Shown here piece after piece: positions 7,990 to 38,675 of a stretch of 64,000 nt of DNA. Numbering within the stretch: position 1 is the first letter of the stretch; every line of letters begins with the position of its first letter. The stretch lies in NCBI GenBank assembly GCA_965195285.1, contig CBDAFS010000031.1, positions 4,371 to 68,370 of the forward strand, given 5' to 3'. The position numbers were made by a program, and so were the translations under genes. The notes below the pieces were generated by a model. The model saw only the letters and a list, made by a program, of their open reading frames with translations. It was not told where the DNA came from and made no database searches. The DNA comes from an uncultured Aminicenantes bacterium. Its GTDB lineage: Bacteria > Acidobacteriota > Aminicenantia > UBA2199.

Positions 7990-10359
7990 ATGAAATCCAA
8001 TAACCATCAAAAAAAATCCATTGCTGAAATTCCGACCCAGCTGAGCCGCGACCTCAGTCTGTTTCAGGTCACCATGATTGGAGTCGGTGCCATGATTGGA
8101 GCAGGTATTTTTGTGCTGACCGGGATTGCTGCCGGATATGCCGGACCGGCACTGATTCTGGTCTTTGCCCTGAATGGATTGGTTACTCTTTTGACTGCCT
8201 TATCCTATGCCGAGCTGGGTTCTTCCTTTCCCGAGGCCGGGGGGGGGTACCTGTGGGTGAAAGAGGGGCTGGGCGGATTGAACGGTTTTCAGGCCGGCTG
8301 GATGAGCTGGTTTGCCCATGCCATGGCCTGCAGTCTCTATATCCTGGGATTCGGTTACTATTTCTGGGAGGCGCTGCGATTTCTTCAGGTGGATACCCTG
8401 ATAACCCCTGTGCTGGCTGCGGTTTTACCGGGAATGGAAAACCATTTTCTGATCGTACAGAAAATTCTGGCGGTTCTGGTGGCGTTGTTCTTTGGCTATA
8501 TAAATTTCAGGGGAGCCTCGGAAACCGGAAAATGGGGAAGCCTGGTAACCATTCTCAAGGTGGTGATACTGGCCGGTTTTGCCCTGTCCGGTCTGCTGGT
8601 TATTTTAAGGAATCCGGACTGGATGGCCAAGTTCGAACCCTTTATGGGCAAGGGAGTTGTGGGAGTATTGGGGGCCATGGGGTTGACCTACATTGCTTTT
8701 GAGGGATATGAAATCATTGTCCAGAGCGGGGAGGAGATCAAGAATCCCAGTAAAAACATACCCAGGGCCATTTTTATTTCCCTGCTGATCGTGGTACCCG
8801 TCTATATTTTTGTGGGCTTCATTGCCCTGGGGGCGGTGGAGATACCTGAGGCGGTCCGGCAGGCCCATCCTGAAATCATTAAAATCTGGGATTACCTGGC
8901 CTTTGCCAAAGAAGGGGCCATGGTTGAGGCAGCCAAGCAGTTCATGCCCCTGGGATACCTGATGATGATACTGGGTGGATTGTTTGCCACCATGTCCGCC
9001 CTGAATGCCACCATCTATTCATCCTCCCGGGTTTCCTTTGCCATGGGCCGCGACAAAAACCTTCCCGATATCTTCGGTAAAATCCACCGGTTGAAGAGAA
9101 CCCCCCATATGGCGGTTTTCCTGTCGGTTATTTTGATTGTGCTGATGGCCCTGATCCTGCCCATCGAAGATGTGGCCGCAGCAGCGGATATCATGTTTAT
9201 TTTACTGTTTGTCCAGGTGAACTGGACACTGATCGTTCTGCGGAAAAAGAAGTCCAAAATGAAGCGATATTTCCGGGTACCGCTGGTACCCCTGGTTCCC
9301 ATCATTGCCATTGTGCTGCAGTTGATTTTGGGGTATTTCCTGTTTCACCTGAGCCCGGTGGCCTGGATTACGGCCATTGTCTGGCTGGTGATGGGCGTGT
9401 TGATCTATTACCTGTATTCCAGCGGCCGGGAAAAGGAGCGGGCCGAAGCCCAGGTTGTTTACGAGGAAAAGCTTCCGGTCAAAACCGGTTACCGTATCCT
9501 GGTTCCATTGGCTCACCCGGATCATGTGGATGATTTGATCCAGATGGCGGCCTCCATTGCCAAATACCGGAACGGCGAAATCCTGGCCCTGGGAATTGTC
9601 CAGGTTCCGGAACAACTACCCGTGGCCGAAGGCCGACGTTTTATCGATGAATCCAAAGTGATGATGGAAAAGGCGGTAAAATCAGGCAAGCGTTACGGTG
9701 TGGTGGTCAACACTCTGCTGCGCATCGGCCACAAGGTGACCCGGGCCATCACCGATACGGTCAAAGAGCGAGATGTCGATATGATGGTCATGGGCTGGAA
9801 GGGTTTCAGTAATACCCGGGGATCAGTATTCGGAGGGACCCTGGATGATGTGGTCATGAATGCCGAGTGTGATGTGATGATGATCAAAATGGTTCACCTG
9901 GAAAAGATGAAACGCATTCTGCTGCCCACCTCGGGAGGCCCCCATGCCGGTTTTGCCCTGGAAATTGCCCCGGCCATTGCCCAAACCTACGGAAGTTCCA
10001 TTATGGTGAGTATGATTGTTCCGCCCGATACCAGGCCGGAAGTCCAGGCTGTATACCAGCAGCGGGTGGATGACAACGTGGCTTACTTGAAGGATAAGGT
10101 TAAAAAGGTGGAGGGACAGCTGGTTAAGGCCCGGTCCATCAGTTCCGGAATTTTAAAACTGACCGAACGTTATGATGCCTGTATCATGGGAGCGGCCAGG
10201 GAAGGCCTGATGCAGCAGATGCTGTTTGGCAGTATTCCGAATAAGATCGGCCGAAAGGGCCGGCATACGGTGATCATGGTCAAAAAACACCAGGGAGCCC
10301 TGAAGAATATCCTCAGCCGGATTTTTCAACGCTCTACCGAACGGGTAGGCAAACGTTAA
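7990..10359 (+). CDS. APC-family amino acid/polyamine permease fused to two C-terminal universal stress protein (USP) domains
   Basis: 789-aa ORF. The N-terminal ~480 aa has about 12 hydrophobic helices with APC-type motifs (GAMIGAGIFVLTG, FEGYE). The C-terminal ~290 aa has two USP-like units (RILVPLAHPDH...MVMGWKG and RILLPTSGGPH...CIMGAAREG). Confidence 0.9.
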   Translation: MKSNNHQKKSIAEIPTQLSRDLSLFQVTMIGVGAMIGAGIFVLTGIAAGYAGPALILVFALNGLVTLLTALSYAELGSSFPEAGGGYLWVKEGLGGLNGFQAGWMSWFAHAMACSLYILGFGYYFWEALRFLQVDTLITPVLAAVLPGMENHFLIVQKILAVLVALFFGYINFRGASETGKWGSLVTILKVVILAGFALSGLLVILRNPDWMAKFEPFMGKGVVGVLGAMGLTYIAFEGYEIIVQSGEEIKNPSKNIPRAIFISLLIVVPVYIFVGFIALGAVEIPEAVRQAHPEIIKIWDYLAFAKEGAMVEAAKQFMPLGYLMMILGGLFATMSALNATIYSSSRVSFAMGRDKNLPDIFGKIHRLKRTPHMAVFLSVILIVLMALILPIEDVAAAADIMFILLFVQVNWTLIVLRKKKSKMKRYFRVPLVPLVPIIAIVLQLILGYFLFHLSPVAWITAIVWLVMGVLIYYLYSSGREKERAEAQVVYEEKLPVKTGYRILVPLAHPDHVDDLIQMAASIAKYRNGEILALGIVQVPEQLPVAEGRRFIDESKVMMEKAVKSGKRYGVVVNTLLRIGHKVTRAITDTVKERDVDMMVMGWKGFSNTRGSVFGGTLDDVVMNAECDVMMIKMVHLEKMKRILLPTSGGPHAGFALEIAPAIAQTYGSSIMVSMIVPPDTRPEVQAVYQQRVDDNVAYLKDKVKKVEGQLVKARSISSGILKLTERYDACIMGAAREGLMQQMLFGSIPNKIGRKGRHTVIMVKKHQGALKNILSRIFQRSTERVGKR

Positions 10360-10370
10360 ATCGCTTTTCC

Positions 10371-10943
10371 ATGAAGATCCTGCTGGTCAACAATGCCGAG
10401 AAGGGTATCGCTGATTACTGTATTCCCATTGAGCATATAATCCGGCATCAATTCGTTACCTTCAAACGGATAGAATATTCGGAAACACTGAGTGCCGATC
10501 TGTCGATTTACCACGGATTCATCCTGACCGGCTCGCCCTGCGGAAATGACATCGTGGAGCATCACCTGCCCTATTTCAAATGGATCAGGGAGATAGACAA
10601 GCCTGTACTGGGAATCTGTGCCGGTCACCACATCATCGGGGCCCTGTTCGGTTCCCGGTTAATTCGGGATGTTGAAAGCGAATTGGGTGATTCAACTATT
10701 ACGATTATCAAGCCAGACCCCATTTTCAATGGACTGGAACAGGAAACGCTGGTTGCTCAGGCTCATCATGATGCCATCACCCTTGCGGACAATTTTGTTC
10801 TGTTGGCCGGTTCCGAAAGGTGTCCGGTCCAGGCCATGAAGCATGAAACCCGTCCTCTCTACTCCACCCAGTTCCACCCCGAAACCCGCAATCCCCGAAT
10901 CATAAAAAACTTCCTGGATATAGTTATGAAATTGGGGGAGTGA
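10371..10943 (+). CDS. Class-I glutamine amidotransferase (GMP-synthase subunit-A-like)
   Basis: 190-aa ORF with nucleophile elbow GICAGHH and C-terminal FHPE (His-Glu of the triad). No synthetase domain is attached. Confidence 0.8.
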   Translation: MKILLVNNAEKGIADYCIPIEHIIRHQFVTFKRIEYSETLSADLSIYHGFILTGSPCGNDIVEHHLPYFKWIREIDKPVLGICAGHHIIGALFGSRLIRDVESELGDSTITIIKPDPIFNGLEQETLVAQAHHDAITLADNFVLLAGSERCPVQAMKHETRPLYSTQFHPETRNPRIIKNFLDIVMKLGE

Positions 10944-11113
10944 AAATGCAAAAATGGTATGCGCCCCCCTTTATTGTCTCCAGTATGTTAACATATTGCT
11001 AACTTACTGGTTATTTGTCAAGATAAAAATGTTGCAACGTAAAACCTCACCCTCCATAGTAAGGCTATACAAGGTTTTAAGGGTTTTCAAATTGAAAATT
11101 TGTGAAAATTATT

Positions 11114-11129
11114 TGGCACAAATCTGGCA
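11114..11129 (+). promoter_or_regulatory. Sigma-54-like -24/-12 element (TGGCAC-N5-TGGCA), or tandem TGGCA half-sites, upstream of the SIR2-like gene
   Basis: TGGCACAAATCTGGCA read directly. The GG and GC are spaced exactly as in consensus TGGCAC-N5-TTGC, with one mismatch (TTGC to TGGC). A near-identical copy lies at 12681-12696. Confidence 0.35.
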
Positions 11130-11145
11130 CAGTTAATATATATTA

Positions 11146-11174
11146 TTGACAATGTGCACGCCCTTAATTAAAAT
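11146..11174 (+). promoter_or_regulatory. Sigma-70-type promoter candidate (TTGACA-N17-TAAAAT) upstream of the SIR2-like gene
   Basis: TTGACA at 11146-11151, a 17-nt spacer, then TAAAAT at 11169-11174. About 105 nt upstream of ATG 11279. Confidence 0.45.
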
Positions 11175-11278
11175 ACCAGTAGGGAATTATTAATTCTCCT
11201 TCATCAATTATTGCAATAGCTTCTTTAACTGAATATAAATTAATTGATTAATATTATTATTTCTTAAAGGAGAGATAT

Positions 11279-12298
11279 ATGGGAAACAGTGAACCAAAAA
11301 AGCGATTCATTACTTATCTACTCGGTGCAGGTGCAAGTGCTAATGCTCTTCCGGTTGTTAAAATAATTCCTGAAAGATTAAGTCAGTTTAGGGATGATGT
11401 CAAAAAATATTTGAATCCAAAAAAAGAAATTATTACTCAACGTGATATCGATAAGAAGCCTCATCAAATAATAACAGATATAGATTGGCTTTTAGAACAA
11501 ACAAAAAAACATATGAGTATTGATACATTTGCCAAGAAACTCTGGACACGAGGGAATCGTGAAGAATTAATGAAATTGAAAAAGCTATTGTCGTATTTTT
11601 TTATTTTTGAACAGGTGGATAAATTGGATATGAGGTACGACAATTTCATTGCGTCTATCATTGATTCAACAAAAAAACCTTCGAATGATGTTCGGATTTT
11701 AAATTGGAATTATGATTATCAATTCGAAAAAGCTTATTCTGAGTATCAGGGGTATTCAGATTTGGATATCATTCAAGAGAAGTTAAACGTTGCTCCCTCT
11801 CCAAATAAAACCAATCCAGATTCAACTCAAGGGTTTTTAGATAAATTATGCCTTGTGAAATTGAATGGTACAACTTCGTTTAAGACTATGGAAGGTGAAA
11901 TACTAAATCTCATCAAGGATTTAAAGAAAAGAAAGGATGAGATCGAATTTAAGAAAATATTTGAATCTCATTACAATACGCCTGATTCTCATTCCCTTGT
12001 CACTTTTGCTTGGGAAAAAAATCAATTACCAAGCCACCAAAAAGTTCAATTCATTTTAAATCATACTGTTGCAATGGTTATCATTGGATATTCCTTCCCT
12101 CAGTTTAATCGTGAGGTCGATAAACAAATTTTTAATCAGTTGCAAGGAACAGGAAAAAAGATTTATATTCAAGATTTAAATACAGATACAATTAAGGTAA
12201 AACTGAAAGGAGTTATGAAAACCAATGATTATTGGGATATTATTCCAGTAAACATGACCGATCAGTTTTTTATCCCTTTTGAGTTAGAAATCAAATAA
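11279..12298 (+). CDS. SIR2-like (SIR2_2/DHS-like NAD-binding fold) protein with Asn in place of the conserved His
   Basis: 339-aa ORF with RBS AAGGAGAG 7 nt upstream. The ordered motifs LLGAGAS (aa 14-20), NWNYD (aa 142-146), VKLNGT (aa 193-198) and VIIGYSF (aa 267-273) match the GAGxS..TNYD..KxHG..GYS layout of prokaryotic SIR2-like proteins. AbiH-like proteins have a similar layout. AT-rich island. Confidence 0.6.
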   Translation: MGNSEPKKRFITYLLGAGASANALPVVKIIPERLSQFRDDVKKYLNPKKEIITQRDIDKKPHQIITDIDWLLEQTKKHMSIDTFAKKLWTRGNREELMKLKKLLSYFFIFEQVDKLDMRYDNFIASIIDSTKKPSNDVRILNWNYDYQFEKAYSEYQGYSDLDIIQEKLNVAPSPNKTNPDSTQGFLDKLCLVKLNGTTSFKTMEGEILNLIKDLKKRKDEIEFKKIFESHYNTPDSHSLVTFAWEKNQLPSHQKVQFILNHTVAMVIIGYSFPQFNREVDKQIFNQLQGTGKKIYIQDLNTDTIKVKLKGVMKTNDYWDIIPVNMTDQFFIPFELEIK

Positions 12299-12316
12299 AA
12301 GAATTTAGTATCTCTT

Positions 12317-12586
12317 TTACAATTTAATATCAACTTTGGATTCATCAAGATATAAATCATCGGGGCATTCCAAACGAGCATACCAGCTTTCGTTCGGATG
12401 TTCTGGAAGTTCTCCCCATGATGTCCTAGTCTCAACAGGTGTCCCTAATTTCGACCTTTTGGGTTCTTTAAGCTTACATCCATGAGCTTCATAAATTTCA
12501 ACAGCTTTCCGAACTTTCTCCTCAATAGTTCCGCTTAGCCTTTTAACCAGGATTGAATCCAATCCTATTGTTTCATCACGACTCAT
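12317..12586 (-). CDS. Small acidic hypothetical protein (89 aa), convergent with the SIR2-like gene
   Basis: ORF with a strong RBS (AAGGAGG 5 nt before the ATG) and its own TTGAAA-N17-TAAAAT promoter. No recognisable family. Confidence 0.6.
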   Translation of the reverse strand: MSRDETIGLDSILVKRLSGTIEEKVRKAVEIYEAHGCKLKEPKRSKLGTPVETRTSWGELPEHPNESWYARLECPDDLYLDESKVDIKL

Positions 12587-12617
12587 TTTTCCTCCTTCTC
12601 TCCTGTTTTAAAATTTT

Positions 12618-12646
12618 ATTTTATAGAATATAACTAAATATTTCAA
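12618..12646 (-). promoter_or_regulatory. Sigma-70-type promoter (TTGAAA-N17-TAAAAT) for the 89-aa ORF
   Basis: Minus strand reads TTGAAA (12646-12641), a 17-nt spacer, then TAAAAT (12623-12618). Shares the 12-mer TTGAAATATTTA with the promoter at 19600-19628. Confidence 0.5.
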
Positions 12647-12680
12647 CATATGGGACTGCGCATTGAATATTCGAAAAAAC

Positions 12681-12696
12681 TGGCATATATCTGGCA
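12681..12696 (+). promoter_or_regulatory. Sigma-54-like -24/-12 element (TGGCAT-N5-TGGCA) upstream of the CHAT gene
   Basis: TGGCATATATCTGGCA read directly. It is the second copy of the motif at 11114-11129, embedded in a ~40-nt imperfect direct repeat (11091-11134 vs 12662-12700). No good sigma-70 -35/-10 pair was seen between it and the CHAT start. Confidence 0.35.
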
Positions 12697-12861
12697 CAAT
12701 TTGAAAGGTGCAGCAGTGCAAAGTCTGACTCCAGTCTATTTTATTAAACGTCATAAGAAGATTTGATCCCTTTTTTTTTACCATTCATGATATTGAAACA
12801 AAAGGATTTCTTAATTATAATTGATTTGAACGTAGTGAATGTTTACAAGGAGAGAAAAATA

Positions 12862-15800
12862 TTGAGTTGGCAAAAGATAATTCCATTTATTTTAATTTTG
12901 AATGTATTTCTTTTTTCTGAAGCCAGGAATAATTTGGATGAAGAATTATTTGTTGCAGTAAAATCAGGGAGTCTTGAAGTTGTACAGTCTCTAATAGAAA
13001 AGGGAGCTGATGTGAATACCAAAGATGAATGGAAGTTGACTCCCTTATTTTATGCTGTATGGAAAAATAAAACCGACATAATTTCATACTTGAAAAAGCA
13101 TGGCGGGATTATATCTAATAAGTCAAAGTTGGAAAAAGTTTTTGAAGCCGAAAAGTATATAAAAGAAGCTGCATTATTGGAGCGAGATTCCAAAATTGAA
13201 AATTCTTTAAATGGTTATATAAAGGCCTTGAAAATCTATGAGAAAATATTTAATAACAATCATGAAGAAATTGCATTACTACTTTTTAAATGTGCAACTA
13301 TATATTCAAAACTGAAAGACTATAACTCAGCTTTAAGCTATCACCATAAAGAAGTAAAAATTAATTTGGAATTATTTGGAGGAATGCATAAAAGTACTGC
13401 AATTAGTTATGGAAATATTGGATTTACATATAGGAATTTAAATCAATTTCAAGAGGCGATTTTAAATTTTAATAATGCAATTGTAATTCTGGAAAAAATT
13501 GATGAAAGCAATAATCTATTGAATATGCTATATAGGGCTATTGGTGATATTTATAAAATGATAAATAATGGCGAAAAGGCATTAAATTTTTATTCTAAAG
13601 CTTATATATCCCATATAATGTTATATGGAGAAAATAATGAAAGTGTTGCAGATATTTTACTTGAAATTGGGCTTGTAAATAAAAACAAAAACAATTTTAA
13701 AGAAGCGAATATTAATCTAATGAAAGCTCATACTATTTATGAAGAGCTTTTGGGGAAATGGCATCCAAAAATAGCTATCGTTTGTGAACATCTTGGATAT
13801 TTGAATGAATTTATGAAAAAATATAGTACTGCATTAGATTATTTCAATAAAAGTTTAGAAGTAAAGAAAAGAATATTGGGAGAGGATGACAAACTGATTG
13901 CTGAATCCTTTGAAAATATTGGAAGAATCTACCAATATTTAGGCAAACCAAATGAAGCTTCTGATTTTTTGAAAAGAACATTAGATATGAAAATAAAATT
14001 GTATGGGAAAAATCATATTCAAGTCATATATACATTAAATTCTCTGGGCCATTTAGCCAATTCTATTGGAAATCATGAAGAGGCGATAGAACATTTTCTT
14101 GAGGCATTAAATATACATAATAATATTTCTAGAGAAGATAAAACTCTTGTTGCTGGAATATACCGGAGTATAGGTGGTGTTTATAACAAGTTAAAGAAAT
14201 TTGATCTTGCACTTAATTATTTAAATGATGCACTAGTTATTCAAAAAATGCATAGTATTAATAAACCATCTGAATTATCATTGACTTACCGTATAATAAA
14301 AGATGTATATGCACGCTTAGACCATAAGAATAAGGATTTATTTTATCTGAAAAAAGAAGGACAGTTTTGCATGAAATATTTTGGGGAGAACAGTCTTCCT
14401 GTTTTTTGGATATATTATGGCATTGCAGTTTATTATTCTCAAATAGAGGATAATAGCAATGCATTAAAGTATTTAAATAAATCATTATATGTTCATGAAA
14501 AAATAAATCCAGAGTCAAATTGGGATACTGGAGATTTATATTTCTGGATTGGATTTAAAGAGTTCAATATTGATAAATATGATGATGCGATGAAGAATGT
14601 CAAGAGGGCATTGTTGATTTTTAATGGATTGAATAAGAGTAATAAAAATGAAATACAAATTGCTCAATGTTATGAGCTACTTGCTTTCATTTATCGTAGC
14701 TTAAATCAGAAAAAATTGGCACTTCAAATCTATAAGAATGCATATAAAATAAGGCAAAAGATTTATAAAAATGATGCTGAAAAGCTTGCACATGAGAATG
14801 TTCAAATGGGAAGTTTTTATGGTACATTGGGTGATATCAAATCTGCAAAAGAACACCACTTAAAGGCATTAAATCTTTTACTTAAAAATCATGATGAAGA
14901 CAATATTGATGTTGCATATTGTTATGAATGGCTTGGCAGGGCTTTAATGGTGAAGCAAAATTTTAAAGAAGCCCTCGAATATATAACAAAGGCACAGAAA
15001 ATTTATACAAAGATTTTTGGGGTGAATCATATAAAAATTGCAGAAATATATGGCGCATTTGGAACGATATACAGACATTCCAAAAAATATGAAAATGCTC
15101 TCAATGCTTATTTTAAAGCACTGGATATTTATGAAAAAAATTCTTCAAGTAAAAAATATTCCATTGGAGGGATCTATTTAGCTATTGGATTTAGTTATGA
15201 ATTAATAGGCAATCATAAAAAGGCAATTTCATACTTAGAGAGATGTATTGAGATGTTTGAATCAATTGAGAATAAAATGAGTTTATCAAGAGCTAAATTC
15301 TATTTGGCAGGTGCTTATGCTTTTTCAGAAAACCATGAAAATGCTATTCGAGAATTAGAGGAATCAATTAATATTAAAGACAGAATAAGATTTGAAATTC
15401 AAGATCCTACTCATAAAGAATCATTTTATGAAGATTATTTAGATAATTATCGTTTACTAATAAGAATGCTAATGAAAAAAAAGAAATACAATAGGGCTTT
15501 TATAAAAGCAGAACAATCAAAGAGTGTTGTTTTTGCAGATATGATGGCCAAAAAAGGTGCAAGGGATAATTTCGCAAAAAAAGATTCTAGATTCCAAGAT
15601 TTACTCAAGGAAGAATATGAGATCTTGAATAAAATAAATAAATTAAAAAATTTATTGAAAACACAGACAGAGAAATCTGATTTAACAAAACGAATGTTAA
15701 TTAACGCACAATCCCAGCTTTCTAACCTGCAAGATTTAATGTCAAAAAAATATCCAAGTTATTCAGAACTTTCTTATCCAAAGGAAATAACTGTTGAGGA

Positions 15801-17091
15801 AGCAAAATCATTTTTGAAGGATGATGAAACATATTTAAGTTTTTATATACTTAGTGATTATTCTGTAGTTTTTATTCTCACAAAAAATGATTTTAAAGTA
15901 CAGATGATCAATTTTGGAAAAGAGTATTTCCAAACCAAAATACCTGAATTAAAAAAACAAATAAAAACTTGTTTGAATAAACTTACTTTGTTTATGGGTG
16001 GAGTAAAATCTGCAATAAAGAAAAAGGATTATTATCCGGGACTCAGTAAGGAATTCTATAAAAACATATTTCAACCAGTAGAAAAACATATTAGGACAAA
16101 GAAATTAATTGTTTCTGCGGATGGAATTCTATACGGATTCCCTTTAGAAGCCCTGGTTATAGAACAAAAAGAGAAAGTATCATTTGGTGGTGAACTACAT
16201 TCTATCGAGAAGTGTAAGGATATGCAATTTAGAGGAGAAGCACCTCTATTTTCTGAATATAACAGTATGACTTTTTTAGGCGATAAGTATAATATATTTT
16301 ATATACCCTCACTCTCAACTTTAAAAATTTTAAGAACCGAAACCAAGACGAATGTCAATGTTGAAAATAAAGTAATTGCCTTTGCTGATCCAATATTTAA
16401 TGATGAGGACCCGAGGGTCAAAGGTACAGAAAAAAAAGCAACGCAATTGGTTGAGGGTCAATTATATGTAAATAGCAATACTGTACGGAGCTGGCCGCCC
16501 CATAGGTTACCAGAAACATCAGAAGAAGCAAAGATTTTTGTAAAAGAAATAGGCAAGGGTGATGTATATGTTGGAATTGAAGCAAATGAAAAGAGAGTAT
16601 GGGACAAGGAACTGTCTGATGCGAAATATATTTTATTCTCCACTCACGGTATATTGGGAACTGAAATTCAAAGAAGTGAAATGATCGAACCGGCATTGGT
16701 ATTATCATTGGTTGGAAATACGGAAGAGTATAACGGTCTTTTGGAAATGAGTGAAGCGGCAGGCCTTCGTTTGAATTCTGAGCTTGTTATTCTGGCAGCA
16801 TGTAATAGCGCAGGTGAAAGTGGAAAGGGTGGTGAGGGATTTGCTGGATTGGCCAGAAGTTTTATTTTTGCAGGGACCCAAGGGGTTATTGCTAGCCATT
16901 GGAAGATTGAGAGTATGGCTACAAAAAATTTGATTTCAATTTTGGGTGAAATGTTATCAAAAAATGATAGACGGCAGGCTTTTTTTAAGGCGAGAGAAAA
17001 ATTTAAGAGTGTAATTGGAAAGCTTAAATATTTTAATATATGTTATGCCCATCCATATTTTTGGTCTGCATTTGTTTATATTGGGGACTGA
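12862..17091 (+). CDS. Ankyrin-TPR-CHAT protein (caspase-like CHAT protease domain), probable signal peptide
   Basis: ORF open from 12763 (1442 aa). The best-supported start is TTG 12862 (AAGGAGAG 7 nt upstream), giving SWQKIIPFILILNVFLFSEA|RNN; the alternative is ATG 12787. Two ankyrin repeats (..LIEKGADVNTKDEWKLTPLFYAV..) are followed by about 20 42-residue TPR-like units. The C-terminal CHAT domain has His in FSTHGILG (CAC 16645-16647) and Cys in LAACNSAG (TGT 16801-16803). Confidence 0.9.
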   Translation: MSWQKIIPFILILNVFLFSEARNNLDEELFVAVKSGSLEVVQSLIEKGADVNTKDEWKLTPLFYAVWKNKTDIISYLKKHGGIISNKSKLEKVFEAEKYIKEAALLERDSKIENSLNGYIKALKIYEKIFNNNHEEIALLLFKCATIYSKLKDYNSALSYHHKEVKINLELFGGMHKSTAISYGNIGFTYRNLNQFQEAILNFNNAIVILEKIDESNNLLNMLYRAIGDIYKMINNGEKALNFYSKAYISHIMLYGENNESVADILLEIGLVNKNKNNFKEANINLMKAHTIYEELLGKWHPKIAIVCEHLGYLNEFMKKYSTALDYFNKSLEVKKRILGEDDKLIAESFENIGRIYQYLGKPNEASDFLKRTLDMKIKLYGKNHIQVIYTLNSLGHLANSIGNHEEAIEHFLEALNIHNNISREDKTLVAGIYRSIGGVYNKLKKFDLALNYLNDALVIQKMHSINKPSELSLTYRIIKDVYARLDHKNKDLFYLKKEGQFCMKYFGENSLPVFWIYYGIAVYYSQIEDNSNALKYLNKSLYVHEKINPESNWDTGDLYFWIGFKEFNIDKYDDAMKNVKRALLIFNGLNKSNKNEIQIAQCYELLAFIYRSLNQKKLALQIYKNAYKIRQKIYKNDAEKLAHENVQMGSFYGTLGDIKSAKEHHLKALNLLLKNHDEDNIDVAYCYEWLGRALMVKQNFKEALEYITKAQKIYTKIFGVNHIKIAEIYGAFGTIYRHSKKYENALNAYFKALDIYEKNSSSKKYSIGGIYLAIGFSYELIGNHKKAISYLERCIEMFESIENKMSLSRAKFYLAGAYAFSENHENAIRELEESINIKDRIRFEIQDPTHKESFYEDYLDNYRLLIRMLMKKKKYNRAFIKAEQSKSVVFADMMAKKGARDNFAKKDSRFQDLLKEEYEILNKINKLKNLLKTQTEKSDLTKRMLINAQSQLSNLQDLMSKKYPSYSELSYPKEITVEEAKSFLKDDETYLSFYILSDYSVVFILTKNDFKVQMINFGKEYFQTKIPELKKQIKTCLNKLTLFMGGVKSAIKKKDYYPGLSKEFYKNIFQPVEKHIRTKKLIVSADGILYGFPLEALVIEQKEKVSFGGELHSIEKCKDMQFRGEAPLFSEYNSMTFLGDKYNIFYIPSLSTLKILRTETKTNVNVENKVIAFADPIFNDEDPRVKGTEKKATQLVEGQLYVNSNTVRSWPPHRLPETSEEAKIFVKEIGKGDVYVGIEANEKRVWDKELSDAKYILFSTHGILGTEIQRSEMIEPALVLSLVGNTEEYNGLLEMSEAAGLRLNSELVILAACNSAGESGKGGEGFAGLARSFIFAGTQGVIASHWKIESMATKNLISILGEMLSKNDRRQAFFKAREKFKSVIGKLKYFNICYAHPYFWSAFVYIGD

Positions 17092-17127
17092 ATAATAAAA
17101 CTTTAATCTTTTGATGTATATCTAATC

Positions 17128-18600
17128 TTATTCTTTTGTTCCTTTTTTCTCTATCATTGTTTCAATATTGGCTGCAATTCTGTGTATACTCATTCCTACA
17201 ATAGCAAATCCAAAATTCAGAAAAACACCGGTGTTAAGAAAGTATAAATAGCCAATATATCCCAAGCCAACCAAAATAATGAGAGATACAAGAACCTGAG
17301 CCAATAGTGATGATAGGTATAAAAATGCATAGGCAGCCAAAATAATAACAATTATTTCAAATAAAAGATTTATCCATCGTGGAGGTGGGGTTGGTTGTTT
17401 TTTGGTTAAGATTGTGTTTATGGCATTTCCAAGAATGTAAATTCCAGCCATTTCTCCAACAGGGGTTTGATGGATATCTCCAACATCCGGGCTTGAATTT
17501 CCGATAATTATGATTTTCTTTTTGATGAAATCCTTATAATATGGTAATTGATCAAACTTGATGTTAATCTGAAAAAGATTTCCTTTACTTAAATCAGTTA
17601 TTGTTTGATCTTGGTTTCTAAATTGGGAAGGAATTAATGAATAGCGAATTCTTTGCAAATATATAAAGTGTTTGTCATCAGTAACTTTTATTGTTTTTCC
17701 ATTTCGAAGAGTTATTGTTGATTTAAAACTTTTAAATCTATTCTGATTTGATGATAATATCTCTTTTTCCAAATCGAATAAAACATTAATATTTCCATCG
17801 ATAGCAAGTAATACAGTTAAGATGGGAATGCCCCATAGTATTTTCTTTGATCCATTGTTATCCACATAGGTGCTGTATAGATTCCAGTAACGGACAATGT
17901 CATCTCTGTGAGTTGCAGATACCCTGGGAACAACTCTGTAAAATTTCCTGATATTATTGTTATAGTTTATTCCTTCCTCAAATAGATCGCTATATTGATT
18001 CTTTTTGAGATCACACTGGACGCCAATTCTTTGGGGGAATATGATTTTTGTTATGTTATTTTTATTATCATGAAGGATATTTTCAAGGACACTTCGCAAT
18101 TTCTGATCAGCGTCTTTATCACTGGATTTATCTTCTAATAATATATCTAATATAATCACTTTTGCCATACCTTGATAGGCAGTTTCCAGAATCGAAGCAA
18201 GTTTATCCCTTGGAGTAATTAATGGTTCTCCCCAGTCTTGATAGGTTTCATGATCAATATCAACAAACAATATTGGAGATGTCTTTATTTTTTGTTTTTC
18301 TTGAACTGCTTCTTTGGCTTCAGCTCTAATAAAATGATCAAATAATTTATCAATAATGCTTTCCCCTAGACTTGTATGTTCCAAATAGTGCATGGATAAA
18401 GCAATAACGATACCTATTATGATATTTATAAAAAAATGGATTCTTTTCTTTTTATTGAACTTGAAAAAGTTAAATGCATTATTAAATCCTTTGGAAATAA
18501 ATACAATAGTTTGAATAATTTTTCTTAGTAGGGAGGAAATAGTTTTAATACCTTGTCTTATTATTCCTCTTGATGAGGGAACTTTATTTTTTTGATTCAT
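17128..18600 (-). CDS. Stand-alone CHASE2-domain membrane protein (no output domain)
   Basis: 490-aa ORF. TM1 is IHFFINIIIGIVIALSMHYL. CHASE2-type motifs follow (ILFVDIDHETYQDWGEPL, VIILDILLED, IVRYWNL, KIIIIGNSSPDVGDIHQTPVGEMAGIYILGNAINT). There are three C-terminal TM helices, and the protein ends about 25 aa after the last one. Confidence 0.8.
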   Translation of the reverse strand: MNQKNKVPSSRGIIRQGIKTISSLLRKIIQTIVFISKGFNNAFNFFKFNKKKRIHFFINIIIGIVIALSMHYLEHTSLGESIIDKLFDHFIRAEAKEAVQEKQKIKTSPILFVDIDHETYQDWGEPLITPRDKLASILETAYQGMAKVIILDILLEDKSSDKDADQKLRSVLENILHDNKNNITKIIFPQRIGVQCDLKKNQYSDLFEEGINYNNNIRKFYRVVPRVSATHRDDIVRYWNLYSTYVDNNGSKKILWGIPILTVLLAIDGNINVLFDLEKEILSSNQNRFKSFKSTITLRNGKTIKVTDDKHFIYLQRIRYSLIPSQFRNQDQTITDLSKGNLFQINIKFDQLPYYKDFIKKKIIIIGNSSPDVGDIHQTPVGEMAGIYILGNAINTILTKKQPTPPPRWINLLFEIIVIILAAYAFLYLSSLLAQVLVSLIILVGLGYIGYLYFLNTGVFLNFGFAIVGMSIHRIAANIETMIEKKGTKE

Positions 18601-18611
18601 AATTTAAAAAT

Positions 18612-19580
18612 TTATTTTAATTGATGATTTATCATCTGTTGTTCCAAATGATTGTAATAATGCATAATCAAGATGATAAAAAGCTTTTTATTGTCATCTT
18701 GAAGTGATTTTCTATCCATTTCGTTTAGAATTAAATAACTCTTCCAATATAAATCAAATTCAGTGGGGTAAGTATCACTTATAAATTGTAAATATGATGC
18801 TCTTTTAAGCTTCTTTATAGTATCGTTCGATTCTTTATTTCCAATAGACAAAAGATCCTTTTTTATCAAATCTGATTGAGATTTGTCTAAAATTTTTAAA
18901 TAGTATTTATCAGTTTTTTCAATAGAATCTTTTTTGGTAACTTCCCAGGAGTAGATCCCTGAAGTTTTCAATTTTAATTCAACTACATTAGTTTTTATTG
19001 ATTTATGACCTTTTGTTGGAGTACTAAATTTAATTGTATCTGAATTATCTTTAATTACTATTTCTTCTGTATCATTATTATCCCAGGCAAATGTAATGGT
19101 ACTATCTGGCAGTAATGTTGCCCAATACCCAGGTTGAGGGAAAAAAGGTTCATCCTCCGCATTAATAATATCGTTTTCGCTCCTTGTGGCAAGGTTTCTT
19201 TTTTTATATCTTTCTTTTTCAAAGCCAATAAAAGAAGCAAGTTTTTTTAGGAATCCTTTTTTATCTTTAGGAGGATTATTTAAAATAATTATGGTTTTAG
19301 CATTTACTTTTTTTATTGATGTAAAAGGAGAAAGTTTTATCTTTAAGTTTTGGATCCCACTTTTTTGATAAATCTTATCGCCTTCAAAAAGTTCAGTCAT
19401 AGGTTCAGCCTTAAATTTTAAATTATTGGATCTCTGAACAACACAGTCTTTATCAAAACCACCCAGAAGTAAGGCAATTGGGTTTTTCGCATGAATTTCG
19501 GCACCTTGAATTATAAAAAAATAAAAAAATATTAAAATTAGATATAATTTATTTGATTTTTTTAAGAATGACTTATTCAT
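18612..19580 (-). CDS. Secreted hypothetical protein, N-terminal FecR-like beta-sandwich region (tentative)
   Basis: 322-aa ORF with RBS AAGGAGAGGAG and signal peptide LYLILIFFYFFIIQGAEIHA. The segment VVQRSNNLKFKAEPMTELFEGDKIYQKSGIQNLKIKLSPFTSIKKV resembles the FecR pattern. Sits 11 nt upstream of the CHASE2 gene on the same strand. Confidence 0.6.
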   Translation of the reverse strand: MNKSFLKKSNKLYLILIFFYFFIIQGAEIHAKNPIALLLGGFDKDCVVQRSNNLKFKAEPMTELFEGDKIYQKSGIQNLKIKLSPFTSIKKVNAKTIIILNNPPKDKKGFLKKLASFIGFEKERYKKRNLATRSENDIINAEDEPFFPQPGYWATLLPDSTITFAWDNNDTEEIVIKDNSDTIKFSTPTKGHKSIKTNVVELKLKTSGIYSWEVTKKDSIEKTDKYYLKILDKSQSDLIKKDLLSIGNKESNDTIKKLKRASYLQFISDTYPTEFDLYWKSYLILNEMDRKSLQDDNKKLFIILIMHYYNHLEQQMINHQLK

Positions 19581-19599
19581 TTCTCCTCTCCTTAACTAC

Positions 19600-19628
19600 A
19601 TTCTAAAAAAAATGATTAAATATTTCAA
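19600..19628 (-). promoter_or_regulatory. Sigma-70-type promoter (TTGAAA-N17-TAGAAT) for the FecR-like/CHASE2 operon
   Basis: Minus strand reads TTGAAA (19628-19623), a 17-nt spacer, then TAGAAT (19605-19600). About 20 nt upstream of the RBS. Confidence 0.5.
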
Positions 19629-19881
19629 TACTTAATAGTAATAATGTCTGAACTATAGAATAGCCAAGTTTTTTCTTGAAATAAATATTTATTTTTTATA
19701 TAAGAAACCTTATCTAAGCCTTTTAAACAAATAGTTTATCATGTGTCATATCTTTACCATGTCTATTAAGAATATTTAAAAAGATAAGGATCAAATCTTT
19801 GTTATTGAAAAAGGCTTGGGAAAGATTATCAGGCAACAAATAGAAATGTGTAAAGATTGGGCATACGGTGGGAATTGGAAT

Positions 19882-35517: not shown

Positions 35518-36351
35518 ATGCAGGATGCAAAAGAAATCAAGGAAATTGTGAAGAAGAAGTACGGGGAAATTGCCAGAAAAACCAGGGGGGAAAATTGTTG
35601 CGGGTCTTCCGGTTGTTGTTCCTCAAAAGAACCGGATTATACAGCCATTGGTGAAAAATATGAGGACATAAACGGATATGTGGCTGAAGCGGATCTGGGT
35701 CTGGGCTGCGGTCTGCCCACCGAATATGCGGACATCAAACCCGGTGATACGGTGGTTGATCTGGGGTCGGGTGCCGGAAACGATGTGTTTGTGGCCCGCT
35801 CAATAGTTGGAGAAACCGGAAGGGTTATCGGGATTGATATGACCCCGGAGATGATCGAACAGGCCAATATCAACAATCAAAAAATGGGATTTGAAAATGT
35901 TGAGTTTCATCACAGTGAGATCGAAGACCTCCCCCTTGAGCAGAATTCGGTTGATGTGGTGGTCAGTAATTGTGTACTAAATCTTGTCCCTGATAAGAAT
36001 AAGGCATTTTCGGAAATCCATCGCATCCTGAAACCCGGTGGTCATTTTTGCATTTCTGATATTGTTTTGAAAGGAAAGCTCCCTGAAGAATTGAAGAGAT
36101 CTGTCGAGGTGTATGTGGGATGTGTGGCCGGTGCAATGCAAATGGATGAATATCTGGATGTGATTAAAGAAGCCGGATTTTCCGGGATTGAGATCAAAGC
36201 CTCCAAATCCATTTGCCTGACCGATGAAATGTTTAAGGATTTTATCACTGAAAAGGAAATAGAGCTTTATAAAAACAGTCGGGTCGACATTTTTAGTATC
36301 ACGGTTGTGGGCCATAAATCCAATATTAAGTTAAGGGGGGACGGTGCTTGA
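35518..36351 (+). CDS. arsM: Arsenite S-adenosylmethionine methyltransferase-like
   Basis: 277-aa ORF with an N-terminal Cys cluster (CCGSSGCCSS), SAM motif VVDLGSGAGNDVF, SNCVLNLVPDK, and a later Cys in VGCVAGA. Adjacent to arsR. Confidence 0.8.
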   Translation: MQDAKEIKEIVKKKYGEIARKTRGENCCGSSGCCSSKEPDYTAIGEKYEDINGYVAEADLGLGCGLPTEYADIKPGDTVVDLGSGAGNDVFVARSIVGETGRVIGIDMTPEMIEQANINNQKMGFENVEFHHSEIEDLPLEQNSVDVVVSNCVLNLVPDKNKAFSEIHRILKPGGHFCISDIVLKGKLPEELKRSVEVYVGCVAGAMQMDEYLDVIKEAGFSGIEIKASKSICLTDEMFKDFITEKEIELYKNSRVDIFSITVVGHKSNIKLRGDGA

Positions 36352-36387
36352 ATTTTTGAGTTTATTCATCTGCCTCTTTTTCCTTAA

Positions 36388-37423
36388 GGGGTCAAATCTG
36401 TGTTTGACGTTTCAGACACAAGCTTTTAAGTTCTTCAACCTTCTGTCTGAAGACAGTATCCTTCTCCATCCCTTTTTTTATACCTCTGAGGACGGTACTG
36501 ACCGAACTGTGGGCATTTAAAAAATAATCTTTTCCCAATTGCTCCAAGGTGTTATTCCGCAAAGATCTCGATAAATAAATTGCCACATCCCTCGGTTCAT
36601 TAAAGGATCTTCTCTTGTCAATGCAAAGGCTTTTCCTGGGGATGTTATAATGTTTACAAACTACATCCATTATATGATCAAGATCTGGAGATAAAATTGA
36701 GGATTCAGGAATCTCCTTATCCCTTTTCTCCTGATAATATTTCTCTTTCATGGAAAGGACAAATTCGTCAGAACCAAAAAATGATGGCCATCTTTTACCT
36801 TCAAGGAGTTTTATAATCTCTTTTTTGTCCTCCTGGCCCATAAATTTTTTATAAGTAACCAGCTGGTTCTTTTTATTATTTGAAAAAATTGATAACATAA
36901 AATCCTTATACAACCAATTCCAATCCTTGGATTTTGAGATATACCCTAGGTGACTACTCCACTCAAAATCATCAATATGTTTGACCAGTTTTGCCCGAAG
37001 GGGATTTCTGTGGATATACCGCAACAGCTGCATTAGATAGCTATCTCCCTCAACCAGGATCGATTTATAACGACCCTTGAATAACTGTCCTTCACAACTA
37101 TTAATTTTATTAAACCTCTGGGTATACACGCCATTGACATGCCGCATAAATCGACTCAGGTTTCCTTTTGGTGTATTGATCAGTAAATGGTAATGATTGG
37201 ACATTAAACAAAAGGCTGCAATATTGACTGTCCATAAATCTGAGGCTTCGAGTAATAATTCAACAAAGATATGGTAGTCCTTTTTTTTAAAAAAGATCTC
37301 TTCAGATCTTCTCCCCCTGTTCATGACATGATACCAGGCTCTAGCGTATTCAATTCTTAATGGTCGACTCATGAAAAAACTGTATCAAACTCTACCTGAA
37401 AAGTCAATCACAGATTTGACCCC
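36388..37423. mobile_element. Compact (~1.04 kb) Y1-transposase element bounded by 21-bp terminal inverted repeats that are each internally palindromic
   Basis: Left end is GGGGTCAAATCTGTGTTTGAC (36388-36408). The reverse complement of the right end (37403-37423) is GGGGTCAAATCTGTGATTGAC, so 20/21 are identical. Each end contains GTCAA(A)-N6/7-TTTGAC, a potential hairpin. The single ORF inside is an IS200/RAYT-like Y1 transposase. Confidence 0.6.
36392..37372 (-). CDS. IS200/RAYT-like Y1 (HUH) transposase fused to a C-terminal DnaA-C-like helix-turn-helix
   Basis: 326-aa ORF with the HUH motif in MSNHYHLLI, a catalytic-Tyr region LLRYIHRNPLRAKLV, and a C-terminal RDVAIYLSRSL..NTLEQLGKDY....HSSVSTVLRGI resembling DnaA domain IV. 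Confidence 0.8.
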   Translation of the reverse strand: MSRPLRIEYARAWYHVMNRGRRSEEIFFKKKDYHIFVELLLEASDLWTVNIAAFCLMSNHYHLLINTPKGNLSRFMRHVNGVYTQRFNKINSCEGQLFKGRYKSILVEGDSYLMQLLRYIHRNPLRAKLVKHIDDFEWSSHLGYISKSKDWNWLYKDFMLSIFSNNKKNQLVTYKKFMGQEDKKEIIKLLEGKRWPSFFGSDEFVLSMKEKYYQEKRDKEIPESSILSPDLDHIMDVVCKHYNIPRKSLCIDKRRSFNEPRDVAIYLSRSLRNNTLEQLGKDYFLNAHSSVSTVLRGIKKGMEKDTVFRQKVEELKSLCLKRQTQI

Positions 37424-37449
37424 TTTTTTGTTCGACCCCTTTTTTGTTC
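37418..37449. repeat. Perfect tandem duplication of the 16-mer GACCCCTTTTTTGTTC at the right end of the Y1 element
   Basis: Read directly: copy 1 at 37418-37433 and copy 2 at 37434-37449. Copy 1 begins inside the right inverted repeat (its GACCCC is the IR tip). Confidence 0.9.
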
Positions 37450-37535
37450 ACCCTGATAGACCAATAACACCTGTCACCCACATTTCAGCCTCCAGCTCCC
37501 TGCCCCCAGACAAAACCAGTTCAAGGTTATTTTTT

Positions 37536-37559: not shown

Positions 37560-37599
37560 TGAGTATTGAAAAAAAAGTGAATTGGTGGTAAAAAATAAG

Positions 37600-38652: not shown

Positions 38653-38675
38653 TAAGTCATTTTATTTAAAGCAAA

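Follow-up and report, generated by a model that had tools for sequence, protein, structure and literature searches.

A predicted three-gene module of secreted CHAT protease, output-less CHASE2 membrane protein and secreted partner, found in several bacterial phyla

Organisation of the locus

The window (the whole 64,000-nucleotide stretch analysed) contains a compact module of three genes, about 6.8 kb in size. The module lies on an 8.9-kb island of foreign GC content, beside a weakly SIR2-like gene. The features are:

10950..19850: low-GC island, ~29% GC against 50-54% in the flanks by composition profiles; holds the module and two unrelated small genes
12758..12780, plus strand: inverted-repeat left arm (23 nt) ahead of the protease gene; candidate shared operator
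12862..17091, plus strand: gene of the predicted exported Ank-TPR-CHAT protease, 1409 aa from TTG 12862; frame open back to 12763
12862..12924, plus strand: predicted Sec signal peptide MSWQKIIPFILILNVFLFSEA, followed by RNN; sole N-terminal hydrophobic segment, aligning with that of the homologue P0231
12946..13116, plus strand: two ankyrin repeats (Ank_4 E 2e-11, Ank_2 E 1e-9, ORF aa 62-118), also present in P0231
13147..15411, plus strand: ~18 TPR units of 42 residues each (TPR_12 E 1e-83, 8 stretches; autocorrelation)
16048..17088, plus strand: CHAT (caspase-fold) domain (PF12770 E 1e-39, aa 1096-1442), with His at 16645-16647 and Cys at 16801-16803
17128..18600, minus strand: gene of the stand-alone CHASE2 membrane protein, 490 aa; PF05226 is the sole Pfam match (E 9e-26)
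17143-17379, minus strand: three C-terminal TM helices of the CHASE2 protein, aa 408-486
17335-18369, minus strand: predicted periplasmic CHASE2 domain (PF05226)
18385-18441, minus strand: TM1 of the CHASE2 protein, aa 54-72
18612..19580, minus strand: gene of the predicted secreted partner, 322 aa; signal peptide ~19488-19580; no Pfam match
19777..19799, minus strand: inverted-repeat right arm (23 nt) ahead of the partner-CHASE2 operon

The protease gene (plus strand) is convergent to the CHASE2/partner pair (minus strand), and the two units are not co-transcribed in the window. The partner gene lies upstream of the CHASE2 gene and ends 11 nt ahead of its start; the gene coordinates thus reproduce the gap given in an earlier, sequence-only reading of this DNA. 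The arms of the inverted repeat (pair I3 of the repeat search) are 87% complementary and share the exact 12-mer AAGATTTGATCC. Further copies of AAGATTTGATCC in the window were rejected as repeat sites, being within coding regions and devoid of flanking similarity. A sigma-54-like motif, TGGCAY-N5-TGGCAC, was also discarded, as it is not enriched window-wide (5 matches, 2.7 expected).

The two small genes of the island encode proteins of 339 and 89 aa, of which no homologue occurs in the related loci or among the retrieved proteins. They were therefore treated as cargo and rejected as parts of the module, with which they do not recur. The ORF list and Pfam revealed no sigma or anti-sigma gene in the island, and CRISPR genes are absent here. 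A plasmid-borne module was dropped as an idea after a tblastn search of the PLSDB plasmids with the CHASE2 protein returned no match. Scanning against PADLOC-DB 2.0 gave only generic Ank, TPR and caspase matches, with none for CHASE2 or the partner; the module proteins do not match system-specific components of the known anti-phage systems in that database.

The CHASE2 protein and its partner

The CHASE2 domain is matched with a score of 91 bits (gathering cut-off, 26). As had been proposed, the protein consists of TM1, the CHASE2 domain and three TM helices, and its C-terminus lies ~4-15 aa past the last predicted helix. No cytoplasmic output domain (cyclase, His or Ser/Thr kinase, GGDEF) follows the TM helices. 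The N-terminus is predicted to be a basic cytoplasmic helix: hydropathy and charge analysis counts 13 K/R and no D/E in its 56 residues, and we therefore predict an N-in orientation with the CHASE2 domain outside. Glu415, located inside TM2, is nearly invariant. The AF2 model is confident (pLDDT 84, pTM 0.82), and its best match among PDB structures has an E value of 0.099. The model shows no caspase fold, which eliminated the idea of CHASE2 as a caspase-like pseudo-protease dimerising with CHAT. Homologues bearing an output domain would have marked the window copy as a truncation; all 64 of 64 are CHASE2-only (331-510 aa, one flagged partial), and the output-less form is therefore regarded as a family. 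The protein is strongly predicted to be a four-TM inner-membrane protein whose CHASE2 domain faces the periplasm, without enzymatic output. To our knowledge, no structure of CHASE2, a widespread sensor domain, has been solved, and hardly any of its signals are known.

The partner had been described as a secreted FecR-like protein. Secretion is strongly predicted, the N-terminus being hydrophobic and signal-like, but no FecR homology is detectable and the assignment was rejected: PF04773 (FecR) matched none of 20 partner-family members at E values up to 10, a profile search of PDB sequences was negative for FecR, hhalign against E. coli FecR gave a probability of 0.4%, and the top 50 Foldseek matches of the whole partner model in the PDB are Ig-like, FecR not being among them. 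We also rejected a DUF928 identity, for which just one of 20 members showed a weak match (E 0.11). Pfam, NCBIfam and PADLOC contain no match to the partner, and public sources hold no informative names for the cluster members. By these comparisons the partner is the founder of a new family without a Pfam match, whose sequences group into 228 clusters, each with a representative, at 50% identity. In the AF2 model (pLDDT 72) the protein is laid out as a beta-sandwich, a conserved linker, an Ig-like domain and a helical bundle. The linker (aa 103-133) is highly conserved and predicted to be unstructured; Arg133 is invariant.

The Ank-TPR-CHAT protein and its predicted export

Pfam analysis of the open frame 12763..17091(+) identified Ank_4/Ank_2, TPR_12 and CHAT, the domains that the sequence-only reading had named for this protein. 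Two ankyrin repeats and a 42-residue TPR periodicity were borne out, with self-similarity peaks at lags of 42, 84 and 126 (lag 42 being >5 SD over background); the number of TPR units is ~18 rather than the ~20 counted previously. The CHAT domain scores 137 bits (gathering cut-off, 24). Its caspase-like dyad is intact, as claimed: the His codon in LFSTHGILG and the Cys codon in ILAACNSAG are both in frame, the two residues align with H and C of the CHAT domains from related loci, and their columns are invariant in an alignment of 19 sequences. A PDB search with the CHAT half as a single sequence gave no match, and the 19-sequence CHAT profile was required to reach DdvA (structure 8rot, E 5e-5, across the dyad region). 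The clade profile has 78 PDB matches; among the 60 listed, DdvA is the only solved structure with a CHAT domain, and neither Csx29 nor separase is matched at the sequence level.

Signal peptides were called from features of the sequences and from their conservation. The TTG codon at 12862 lies in frame, with the ribosome-binding site AAGGAGAG ahead of it, and an independent gene call on an identical public contig also gives 1409 aa, that is, the same start. From this codon the N-terminus reads M-SWQK, IIPFILILNVFLF and SEA, followed by RNN. The closest homologue, P0231, begins directly with a signal peptide, MKKGIIYCWFILLLNLLVYPQ followed by SQ, and continues with the same Ank repeats; the hydrophobic cores of the two proteins align at equal distance from the start. 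These observations support the start and signal peptide put forward earlier.

The hydrophobic N-terminus could instead be an artefact of start choice, in a protease that is cytoplasmic like Csx29 and separase and merely neighbours two genes with which it shares no function. The in-frame ATG 12787, which places 25 extra residues before the hydrophobic segment, and the convergent, not co-transcribed arrangement in the window speak for this. However, the segment persists when translation begins at ATG 12787, and would then be a predicted signal anchor; it is thus present from either plausible start. P0231 has no such extension ahead of its signal peptide. Relatives within the same CHAT clade also argue against a cytoplasmic protease: P0231, P0241 and P0257 have a signal peptide, P0261 has a lipobox, and P0244, P0245, P0247, P0248 and P0252 carry a peptidoglycan-binding OmpA domain. 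Moreover, the three families recur together in many loci, in some of them as operons with overlapping stop and start codons (see below). The recurring loci and the start of P0231 largely refute the chance-neighbour explanation, which we regard as very improbable.

Classic signal peptides are found on module-linked proteases of other loci (L008, L012, L016, L021, L023, L024, L025), as well as on the TPR-CHAT and WD40 proteins of L005 and both proteins of L003. Given this conservation and the lipobox and OmpA relatives, the protease is very probably exported, as the sequence-only reading had it. Because the protein with the intact His/Cys dyad bears an N-terminal Sec signal, the predicted protease would work outside the cytoplasm.

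Related loci and the proposed role of the module

Related loci were retrieved through homology to CHASE2 or the partner. A scan of genome contigs with the partner profile yielded five loci and a scan of metagenomes with the CHASE2 profile 17; the neighbourhood statistics therefore rest on a modest sample of ~24 distinct loci. The partner directly adjoins the CHASE2 gene, in either gene order, in 19 of the 20 loci that could be judged. One protein, P0150, is a CHASE2-partner fusion, in which the topology stays consistent. A caspase-fold protease (CHAT or C14) is encoded in 12 of the ~15 loci with enough flanking sequence. It may be a TPR-CHAT, a WD40-caspase (L002, L003, L005) or a caspase-Lcl_C protein, and nearly always has a signal peptide. 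Overlapping or tightly spaced operons occur in L008, L016, L023, L024 and L025. Two loci have long flanks but no caspase-fold protease: L006, and L017, which encodes just an M48 lipoprotein peptidase. In L011 the partner is present but CHASE2 is absent, and L029 and L030 have exported CHAT relatives without CHASE2. In L025 and L027, CHASE2 is fused to DUF4062-like and nSTAND1 regions (nSTAND1 E 3e-89), the N-terminus of the fusion being PDC-S60-like in PADLOC. An integrase or transposases adjoin the module in L008, L005 and L006, and decaying copies are present in L002 and L010.

Co-occurrence of the three families is far above chance, often in the form of a tight operon; because the three-way grouping recurs in many independent loci, the association is not accidental. 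The predicted module of secreted CHAT protease, output-less CHASE2 membrane protein and secreted partner spans several bacterial phyla, and the partner is strongly predicted to be an obligate genomic companion of this CHASE2 clade.

By analogy, the closest characterised system is DdvA of Myxococcus, a periplasmic TPR-CHAT anti-sigma factor controlling phage defence (PMC11506125). DdvA and the window protein share a TPR-CHAT protease-like module with a His-Cys dyad, periplasmic in DdvA and predicted to be so here, and DdvA has been suggested to sense a protein signal, with a membrane-spanning regulator as the target of its action. DdvA, however, also includes a zinc anti-sigma domain, which is cytoplasmic, and a TM helix in its single polypeptide, and it pairs with an ECF sigma factor, whereas the window TPR-CHAT is a separate, predicted exported protein and the membrane part is a four-TM CHASE2 protein with a secreted partner. 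Ahead of the Ank repeats of the window protein there is just a signal peptide of the cleavable type, in place of a zinc anti-sigma domain and TM helix.

The FecR/CHASE2 neighbourhoods mentioned in the sequence-only reading are documented. The Burkholderia 'BiofilmReg' operon encodes a response regulator, a LysM-FecR protein and a CHASE2 histidine kinase (PMC5192318), and a Campylobacterota cluster combines a CHASE2 cyclase, a phosphodiesterase, a FecR-domain protein and a TPR protein (PMC9239204). As in the window, a CHASE2 membrane protein of TM1-CHASE2-3TM topology lies beside a secreted accessory, and the Campylobacterota cluster likewise includes a TPR protein. The partner occupies the slot that FecR-domain proteins hold beside other CHASE2 receptors. 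In contrast to these systems, which have cytoplasmic kinase or cyclase outputs, the window CHASE2 has none, its accessory has no detectable FecR domain, and its TPR protein bears CHAT. CHASE2 cyclases sense a protein signal passed on by an envelope partner (PMC13001267).

Caspase-CHASE2 fusions, namely a Trichodesmium metacaspase-CHASE2 (PMC3501461, PMC2853523) and EACC2-caspase-CHASE2 (PMC8195603), also link a caspase-fold protease functionally to a CHASE2 sensor. In these fusions the caspase precedes TM1 and its predicted location is the cytoplasm, whereas the window protease is a separate protein, predicted to be exported to the side of the membrane on which the CHASE2 domain also lies. A gene cluster of Nostoc punctiforme (PMC5587647), which encodes two WD40 proteins, a hypothetical protein, a CHASE2 protein and a DUF928 protein, similarly combines CHASE2 with repeat proteins and a small protein that is uncharacterised, but its DUF928 is not the partner family. 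Craspase (type III-E Cas7-11 with Csx29) and separase share the TPR-CHAT architecture and caspase-type dyad; they are cytoplasmic and activated by RNA guides or securin release. STAND-NTPase conflict systems (nSTAND1; Kaur et al., as cited in PMC8195603 and PMC10907252) are related through the L025/L027 fusion only, and Pfam found no STAND NTPase in the window module.

The trio is probably a proteolytic sensing device of the cell envelope. We put at about even chances a reading in which CHASE2 and the partner are an envelope receptor or dock for the exported sensor-protease, the three genes forming one envelope-located module brought in by horizontal transfer. CHASE2 and the partner would build the membrane-bound periplasmic receptor or dock, and the repeat array of the protease (TPR here, WD40 or lectin-like Lcl_C elsewhere) would bind a protein ligand, the partner or both. 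Regulated CHAT proteolysis in the periplasm would be the output, standing in for the cyclase or kinase output that classical CHASE2 receptors have in the cytoplasm. The substrate would most likely be a module component; candidates are the partner linker with its invariant Arg133 and a juxtamembrane segment of CHASE2. Such cleavage would parallel the site-1-type self-cleavage proposed for DdvA. The signal may flow from receptor to protease, or from protease to CHASE2/partner as proposed for DdvA. Control of the protease by CHASE2 and the partner would fit the data.

A quite unlikely alternative has the module act as a protease-activated membrane effector with gasdermin-like logic. The exported TPR/WD40-protease would be the sensor, and cleavage of the partner or CHASE2 ectodomain would free the CHASE2 bundle to permeabilise the membrane and abort infection. 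As enzymatic output is lacking in the CHASE2 protein, the sole candidate effector is its TM bundle, a four-helix membrane part with a conserved intramembrane Glu and a basic N-terminal helix. Bacterial gasdermins provide a precedent, since they are known to be cleavable effectors paired with caspase-fold proteases. The near-invariance of Glu415, the island location and the decaying copies also agree with an effector. Against it, neither CHASE2 nor the partner resembles pore-formers (Foldseek of both models), and Pfam detected no gasdermin-like pore-former beside the protease either. The nSTAND1 fusion implies relay to or from the cytoplasm rather than a pore, and the same CHASE2 fold senses in cyclases and kinases (PMC13001267, PMC5192318).

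Somewhat less improbable, though still unlikely in our view, is envelope signalling or maturation unconnected with conflict, in which CHASE2, accessory and TPR protein are a generic periplasmic sensory apparatus controlling the processing of surface or periplasmic proteins, for instance in biofilm formation, aggregation or development, as HetF acts on PatU3. The clusters of CHASE2 with FecR-domain and TPR proteins govern cAMP or biofilm two-component signalling (PMC9239204, PMC5192318), and HetF acts as a CHAT-type protease on a developmental substrate (PMC9457339). In L016 a gene for a hybrid histidine kinase precedes the partner gene by ~2 kb, and M48 and trypsin-like envelope peptidases lie near the modules of L005 and L017; these neighbours point the same way. 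Yet the patchy distribution over phyla, the foreign-GC island and the weakly SIR2-like gene beside the module, the swapping of sensor repeats (TPR, WD40, Lcl_C) over a constant protease and CHASE2 core, and the nSTAND1 variant are more typical of conflict systems.

Returning to the receptor-and-protease reading, its most likely role is envelope surveillance for foreign or damage-associated proteins (conflict or defence), a role less secure than the architecture. It is hinted at indirectly by the island location, the patchy occurrence across phyla, the nSTAND1 fusion variant and the DdvA analogy; the integrase or transposases of L005, L006 and L008 and the decaying copies are further hints of conflict. 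In a bolder, doubtful but possible form, the module would be a periplasmic innate-immunity-like system, in which an exported protease with swappable repeat sensors signals through, or cleaves, CHASE2 and the partner; phage, predator or toxin components entering the envelope would be sensed.

A CHASE2 clade stripped of cytoplasmic output and strictly paired with the partner and exported proteases suggests another use of the domain, in periplasmic protein-protein or proteolytic signalling. A new protein family, the partner, is named, and DdvA, the single characterised periplasmic TPR-CHAT protein, would gain a broader multi-phylum context. At ~6.8 kb, the three genes may be moved to a model host for studying an extracytoplasmic caspase-like protease. 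If the innate-immunity-like reading were true, stand-alone CHASE2 proteins would be protease-coupled receptors or effectors rather than second-messenger sensors, and the module would be an extracytoplasmic counterpart to the cytoplasmic caspase/STAND conflict systems.

The exported protease

The module comprises three genes:

12862-17091, + strand: exported Ank-TPR-CHAT protease
17128-18600, - strand: CHASE2 protein
18612-19580, - strand: secreted 322-aa protein, hereafter the partner

In the long plus-strand frame 12763..17091, Pfam models match Ank_4/Ank_2 (residues 62-118 of the ORF), TPR_12 (E 1e-83) and CHAT (E 1e-39, residues 1096-1442). Self-similarity within protease residues 96-970 peaks at lags of 42, 84 and 126, with lag 42 more than 5 SD over background. 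The 42-residue repeat proposed in the sequence-only reading therefore stands, but its count of about 20 TPR units does not: set in rows of 42, the array contains approximately 18. The CHAT dyad is intact as had been claimed, with the His codon at 16645-16647 (LFSTHGILG) and the Cys codon at 16801-16803 (ILAACNSAG) both in frame. The two residues match the His and Cys of other CHAT domains and occupy invariant columns in an alignment of 19 sequences.

The TTG start at 12862, chosen in that reading for its ribosome-binding site, is in frame and has AAGGAGAG just 5' of it, and a separate gene call on a public contig of identical sequence places the start at exactly this codon, giving a product of 1409 aa. 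The predicted N-terminus, MSWQK-IIPFILILNVFLF-SEA followed by RNN, follows the n-h-c pattern of Sec signal peptides, as proposed, and it holds the sole N-terminal hydrophobic stretch of the protease.

Export of module-linked proteases is predicted to be conserved among related loci retrieved for comparison (L numbers). The protease of L005 begins with the classic signal MNKFVIGLIVIALMTCNLAQA before AP, that of L003 has a signal ending in LVLAAALAALATSSA before QT, and that of L008 has MKKYILLFFFVALMLPKPLVG before Q; classic signals are also found on the module-linked proteases of L023, L024, L025, L016 and L012. A search with the CHAT half identified P0231 as the nearest relative of the window protease (43% identity). 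In P0231, too, CHAT is combined with Ank repeats and a signal peptide, and the hydrophobic cores of the two proteins align at equal distance from the start. Among the other relatives, P0241 and P0257 have signal peptides, P0261 has a lipobox, and P0244, P0245, P0247, P0248 and P0252 carry an OmpA-like peptidoglycan-binding domain immediately N-terminal to CHAT. These features indicate that the CHAT clade of the window protease is extracytoplasmic in general. Members of the clade also occur without CHASE2 (L029, L030); in L030 a TIR-domain gene lies close to the CHAT-clade gene.

A profile of the CHAT clade matched 8rot/8rw5 (E 5e-5) over the His-Cys region, the only CHAT-bearing solved structure among the best 60 of 78 matches. 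We take this structure to be DdvA, the periplasmic TPR-CHAT anti-sigma factor of Myxococcus, since it is a 991-residue "CHAT domain-containing protein" and both the length of DdvA and the position of its H862/C907 dyad agree. In the model put forward for DdvA, it detects a protein of phage origin and cleaves its own juxtamembrane linker; an RseP-dependent step then frees an ECF sigma factor, which turns on CBASS/CRISPR genes (PMC11506125).

The CHASE2 protein and its partner

CHASE2 (E 9e-26) is the only Pfam match in the 490-aa protein. In its confident AlphaFold2 (AF2) model (pLDDT 84, pTM 0.82), a long helix at the N-terminus precedes TM1, and an α/β ectodomain is followed by three helices at the C-terminal end (408-486). 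The first 56 residues include 13 Lys/Arg and no Asp/Glu, which, together with the modelled helices, indicates that both termini are cytoplasmic and the CHASE2 domain periplasmic. The C-terminal helices reach residue 486 of 490 and leave no space for an output domain, in agreement with the description of this protein as output-less. All 64 homologues retrieved (30-52% identity) likewise contain CHASE2 only, so the output-less form is a family and this copy no truncation. Their lengths range from 400 to 510 aa, apart from one 331-aa entry described as partial by its source. The glutamate at residue 415 (~17356-17358, - strand), inside TM helix 2, is nearly invariant in this family. The CHASE2 fold appears, judging from the model (m1e20ff21cb26), to be unrepresented among solved structures, as its best structural match in the PDB was no better than E 0.099.

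The partner gene has a strong ribosome-binding site, and its stop codon lies 11 nt 5' of the CHASE2 start, as previously noted. The encoded protein has a hydrophobic, signal-like N-terminus and is predicted to be secreted, in line with the sequence-only reading; that it is FecR-like could not be upheld. Pfam, NCBIfam and PADLOC gave no family match, FecR was absent from the hits of 20 family members even at a lax E-value limit of 10, a family profile found nothing meaningful among PDB sequences, and hhalign against E. coli FecR returned a probability of 0.4%. In the AF2 model (pLDDT 72) a signal helix is followed by a β-sandwich at residues 36-101 and, after a stretch modelled with low confidence (104-146), by an Ig-like sandwich at 150-230; a helical bundle (233-321) closes the chain. 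The top 50 Foldseek matches of this model in the PDB are Ig-like and include no FecR, the best being the C-terminal domain of MtxA (E 3e-5). When 1.84 billion representatives were searched exhaustively with a profile, 228 relatives emerged, mostly of 290-320 aa, whose core matches no Pfam family. We therefore assign the partner to a new, unnamed family.

The best-conserved stretch of the partner, residues 103-133 (~19182-19274, - strand), contains the invariant residues P104, K107, L114, F117, G119, F120, E121 and R133, and is predicted by AF2 with very low confidence (pLDDT <50). This combination, typical of docking or cleavage segments, makes it a candidate interaction or cleavage site, analogous to the linker of DdvA. 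The module might also be read as a membrane effector switched on by the protease, which we consider unlikely.

Recurrence of the three genes

Loci came from exact look-ups and from two profile scans, one of genomes using the partner and one of metagenomes using CHASE2; all their ORFs were searched with HMMs built from our own alignments. De-duplication left approximately 24 distinct loci. The expected co-occurrence of the three families was found. Adjacency can be judged in 20 loci, and in 19 of these the partner directly adjoins the CHASE2 gene, in either gene order; L021 lacks a partner, and L011 has a partner without CHASE2. Of about 15 loci with sufficient flank, 12 have a caspase-fold protease no more than 10 kb away:

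TPR-CHAT: the window, L005, L008/L009, L012, L014, L023, L024 (two copies), L025 and L010 (fragmented)
WD40-caspase: L002/L007 (frameshifted), L003/L004/L013 and L005
Peptidase_C14-Lcl_C: L016

There is no protease at the module of L006. L021 encodes a TPR protein with a signal peptide, ended by the contig edge. L017 has only an M48 lipoprotein peptidase (12436-14049), and an M48 zinc metallopeptidase also adjoins the module in L005 (15529-17361). In L008 the genes form a tight operon with overlaps (8674..10005, 9992..10912, 10909..14004), and the arrangements in L025, L023, L024 and L016 are about as compact. Labelled loci come from metagenome-assembled genomes of Aminicenantes, Bacteroidetes and Nitrospiraceae; a contig identical to the Bacteroidetes locus was binned as Bacillota, and Ignavibacteriae labels also occur among the homologues.

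The 988-aa protein P0150 is a natural fusion of CHASE2 (residues 97-425), TM helices and a partner domain (505-807). Its topology is consistent, as the partner signal peptide would serve as a fifth TM helix that brings the partner domain back to the periplasm. In L025 (8006-11050) and L027 (3706-6759), CHASE2 forms the C-terminal end of a 1014-aa protein whose N-terminal extension of ~660 aa contains an nSTAND1 NTPase (E 3e-89) and a DUF4062-like domain; the latter is below the Pfam cut-off and also resembles the N-terminus of the PADLOC candidate PDC-S60. The partner follows 3' in both loci, with an exported TPR-CHAT gene next in L025; the L027 contig stops before the point where such a gene could be detected. 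Other copies are decaying. In L002/L007 (5383-7847, 10444-10914) a frameshift breaks up the WD40-caspase gene and an additional caspase fragment is present 3' of CHASE2, and in L010 (9977-12384) the partner and CHASE2 genes are each in two pieces.

A three-component module situated in the envelope is firmly supported. Caspase-CHASE2 fusions with a cytoplasmic caspase have been described (PMC3501461, PMC2853523, PMC8195603). The view that our genes are mere neighbours and the protease cytoplasmic is largely refuted, and we hold it to be highly improbable.

Genomic setting and possible role

The module lies in a low-GC island of ~8.9 kb (~10,950-19,850; ~29% GC, flanks 50-54%) with sharp edges in the composition profiles, at the stop codons of two flanking genes, one for a GATase (10943) and one for an IcmF-like mutase (19882). 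Window positions 36000-42000 form a second lower-GC region (~40%). The island also contains:

11279-12298, + strand: 339-aa gene with GAGAS and IIGYSF motifs and a weak SIR2_2 match (E 0.027)
12317-12586, - strand: 89-aa gene without matches
12758-12780 and 19777-19799: two arms, 23 nt each, of an inverted repeat that is 87% complementary and has AAGATTTGATCC as its exact core

From its motifs and weak match, the 339-aa protein may be a SIR2-like defence protein of the NADase type. Neither small gene recurs beside the module in the other loci compared, and 10950-19850 showed neither an integrase nor a tRNA nor a flanking direct repeat. Both convergent transcription units have a repeat arm on their 5' side, and the remaining window copies of the 12-mer AAGATTTGATCC are all inside coding regions; the repeat may be a shared operator of the protease and partner-CHASE2 units. 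The motif TGGCAY-N5-TGGCAC, resembling a sigma-54 -24/-12 promoter, occurs at 11114-11134 and 12681-12701, ~165-180 nt 5' of the genes for the 339-aa protein and the protease, and is not enriched across the whole window.

CHASE2 and the partner would form a membrane-bound receptor or dock in the periplasm, the repeat array of the exported protease would bind a protein ligand and/or the partner, and regulated periplasmic proteolysis would substitute for the absent cytoplasmic output of CHASE2. In the sole case studied, CHASE2 receives a protein as its signal through a partner in the outer membrane (PMC13001267). A conflict or surveillance role is possible and would fit the pairing of a variable sensor with a constant core of protease and CHASE2, the siting in an island of foreign GC, the decaying copies, the nSTAND1 variant and the mobile-element genes near the module in L005, L006 and L008. 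That the module is specifically a caspase-based periplasmic immune sensor is a possibility we raise tentatively.

The recurrence of FecR/CHASE2 neighbourhoods, noted in the sequence-only reading, is documented, with CHASE2 receptors repeatedly having genes for secreted FecR-domain proteins next to them: a Burkholderia operon encodes a response regulator, LysM-FecR and a CHASE2 histidine kinase (PMC5192318), and in Campylobacterota the gene for a CHASE2-cyclase clusters with those for a PDE, a FecR-domain protein and a TPR protein (PMC9239204). Beside such clusters, and with M48 peptidases adjoining some copies, the module might instead be a non-conflict system for signalling or protein maturation, which seems doubtful to us next to the features that fit conflict or surveillance. 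WD40, CHASE2 and DUF928 form a gene cluster in Nostoc (PMC5587647). The literature searched contained no paper combining "CHASE2" with "CHAT domain". All domains of the module except that of the partner are already known, as are periplasmic TPR-CHAT proteins (DdvA) and operons of CHASE2 with accessory genes. The conserved trio itself, in which a stand-alone CHASE2 protein is joined by a new family of secreted partners and by a caspase-fold protease that is exported, appears to be undescribed, as do its fusion variants.
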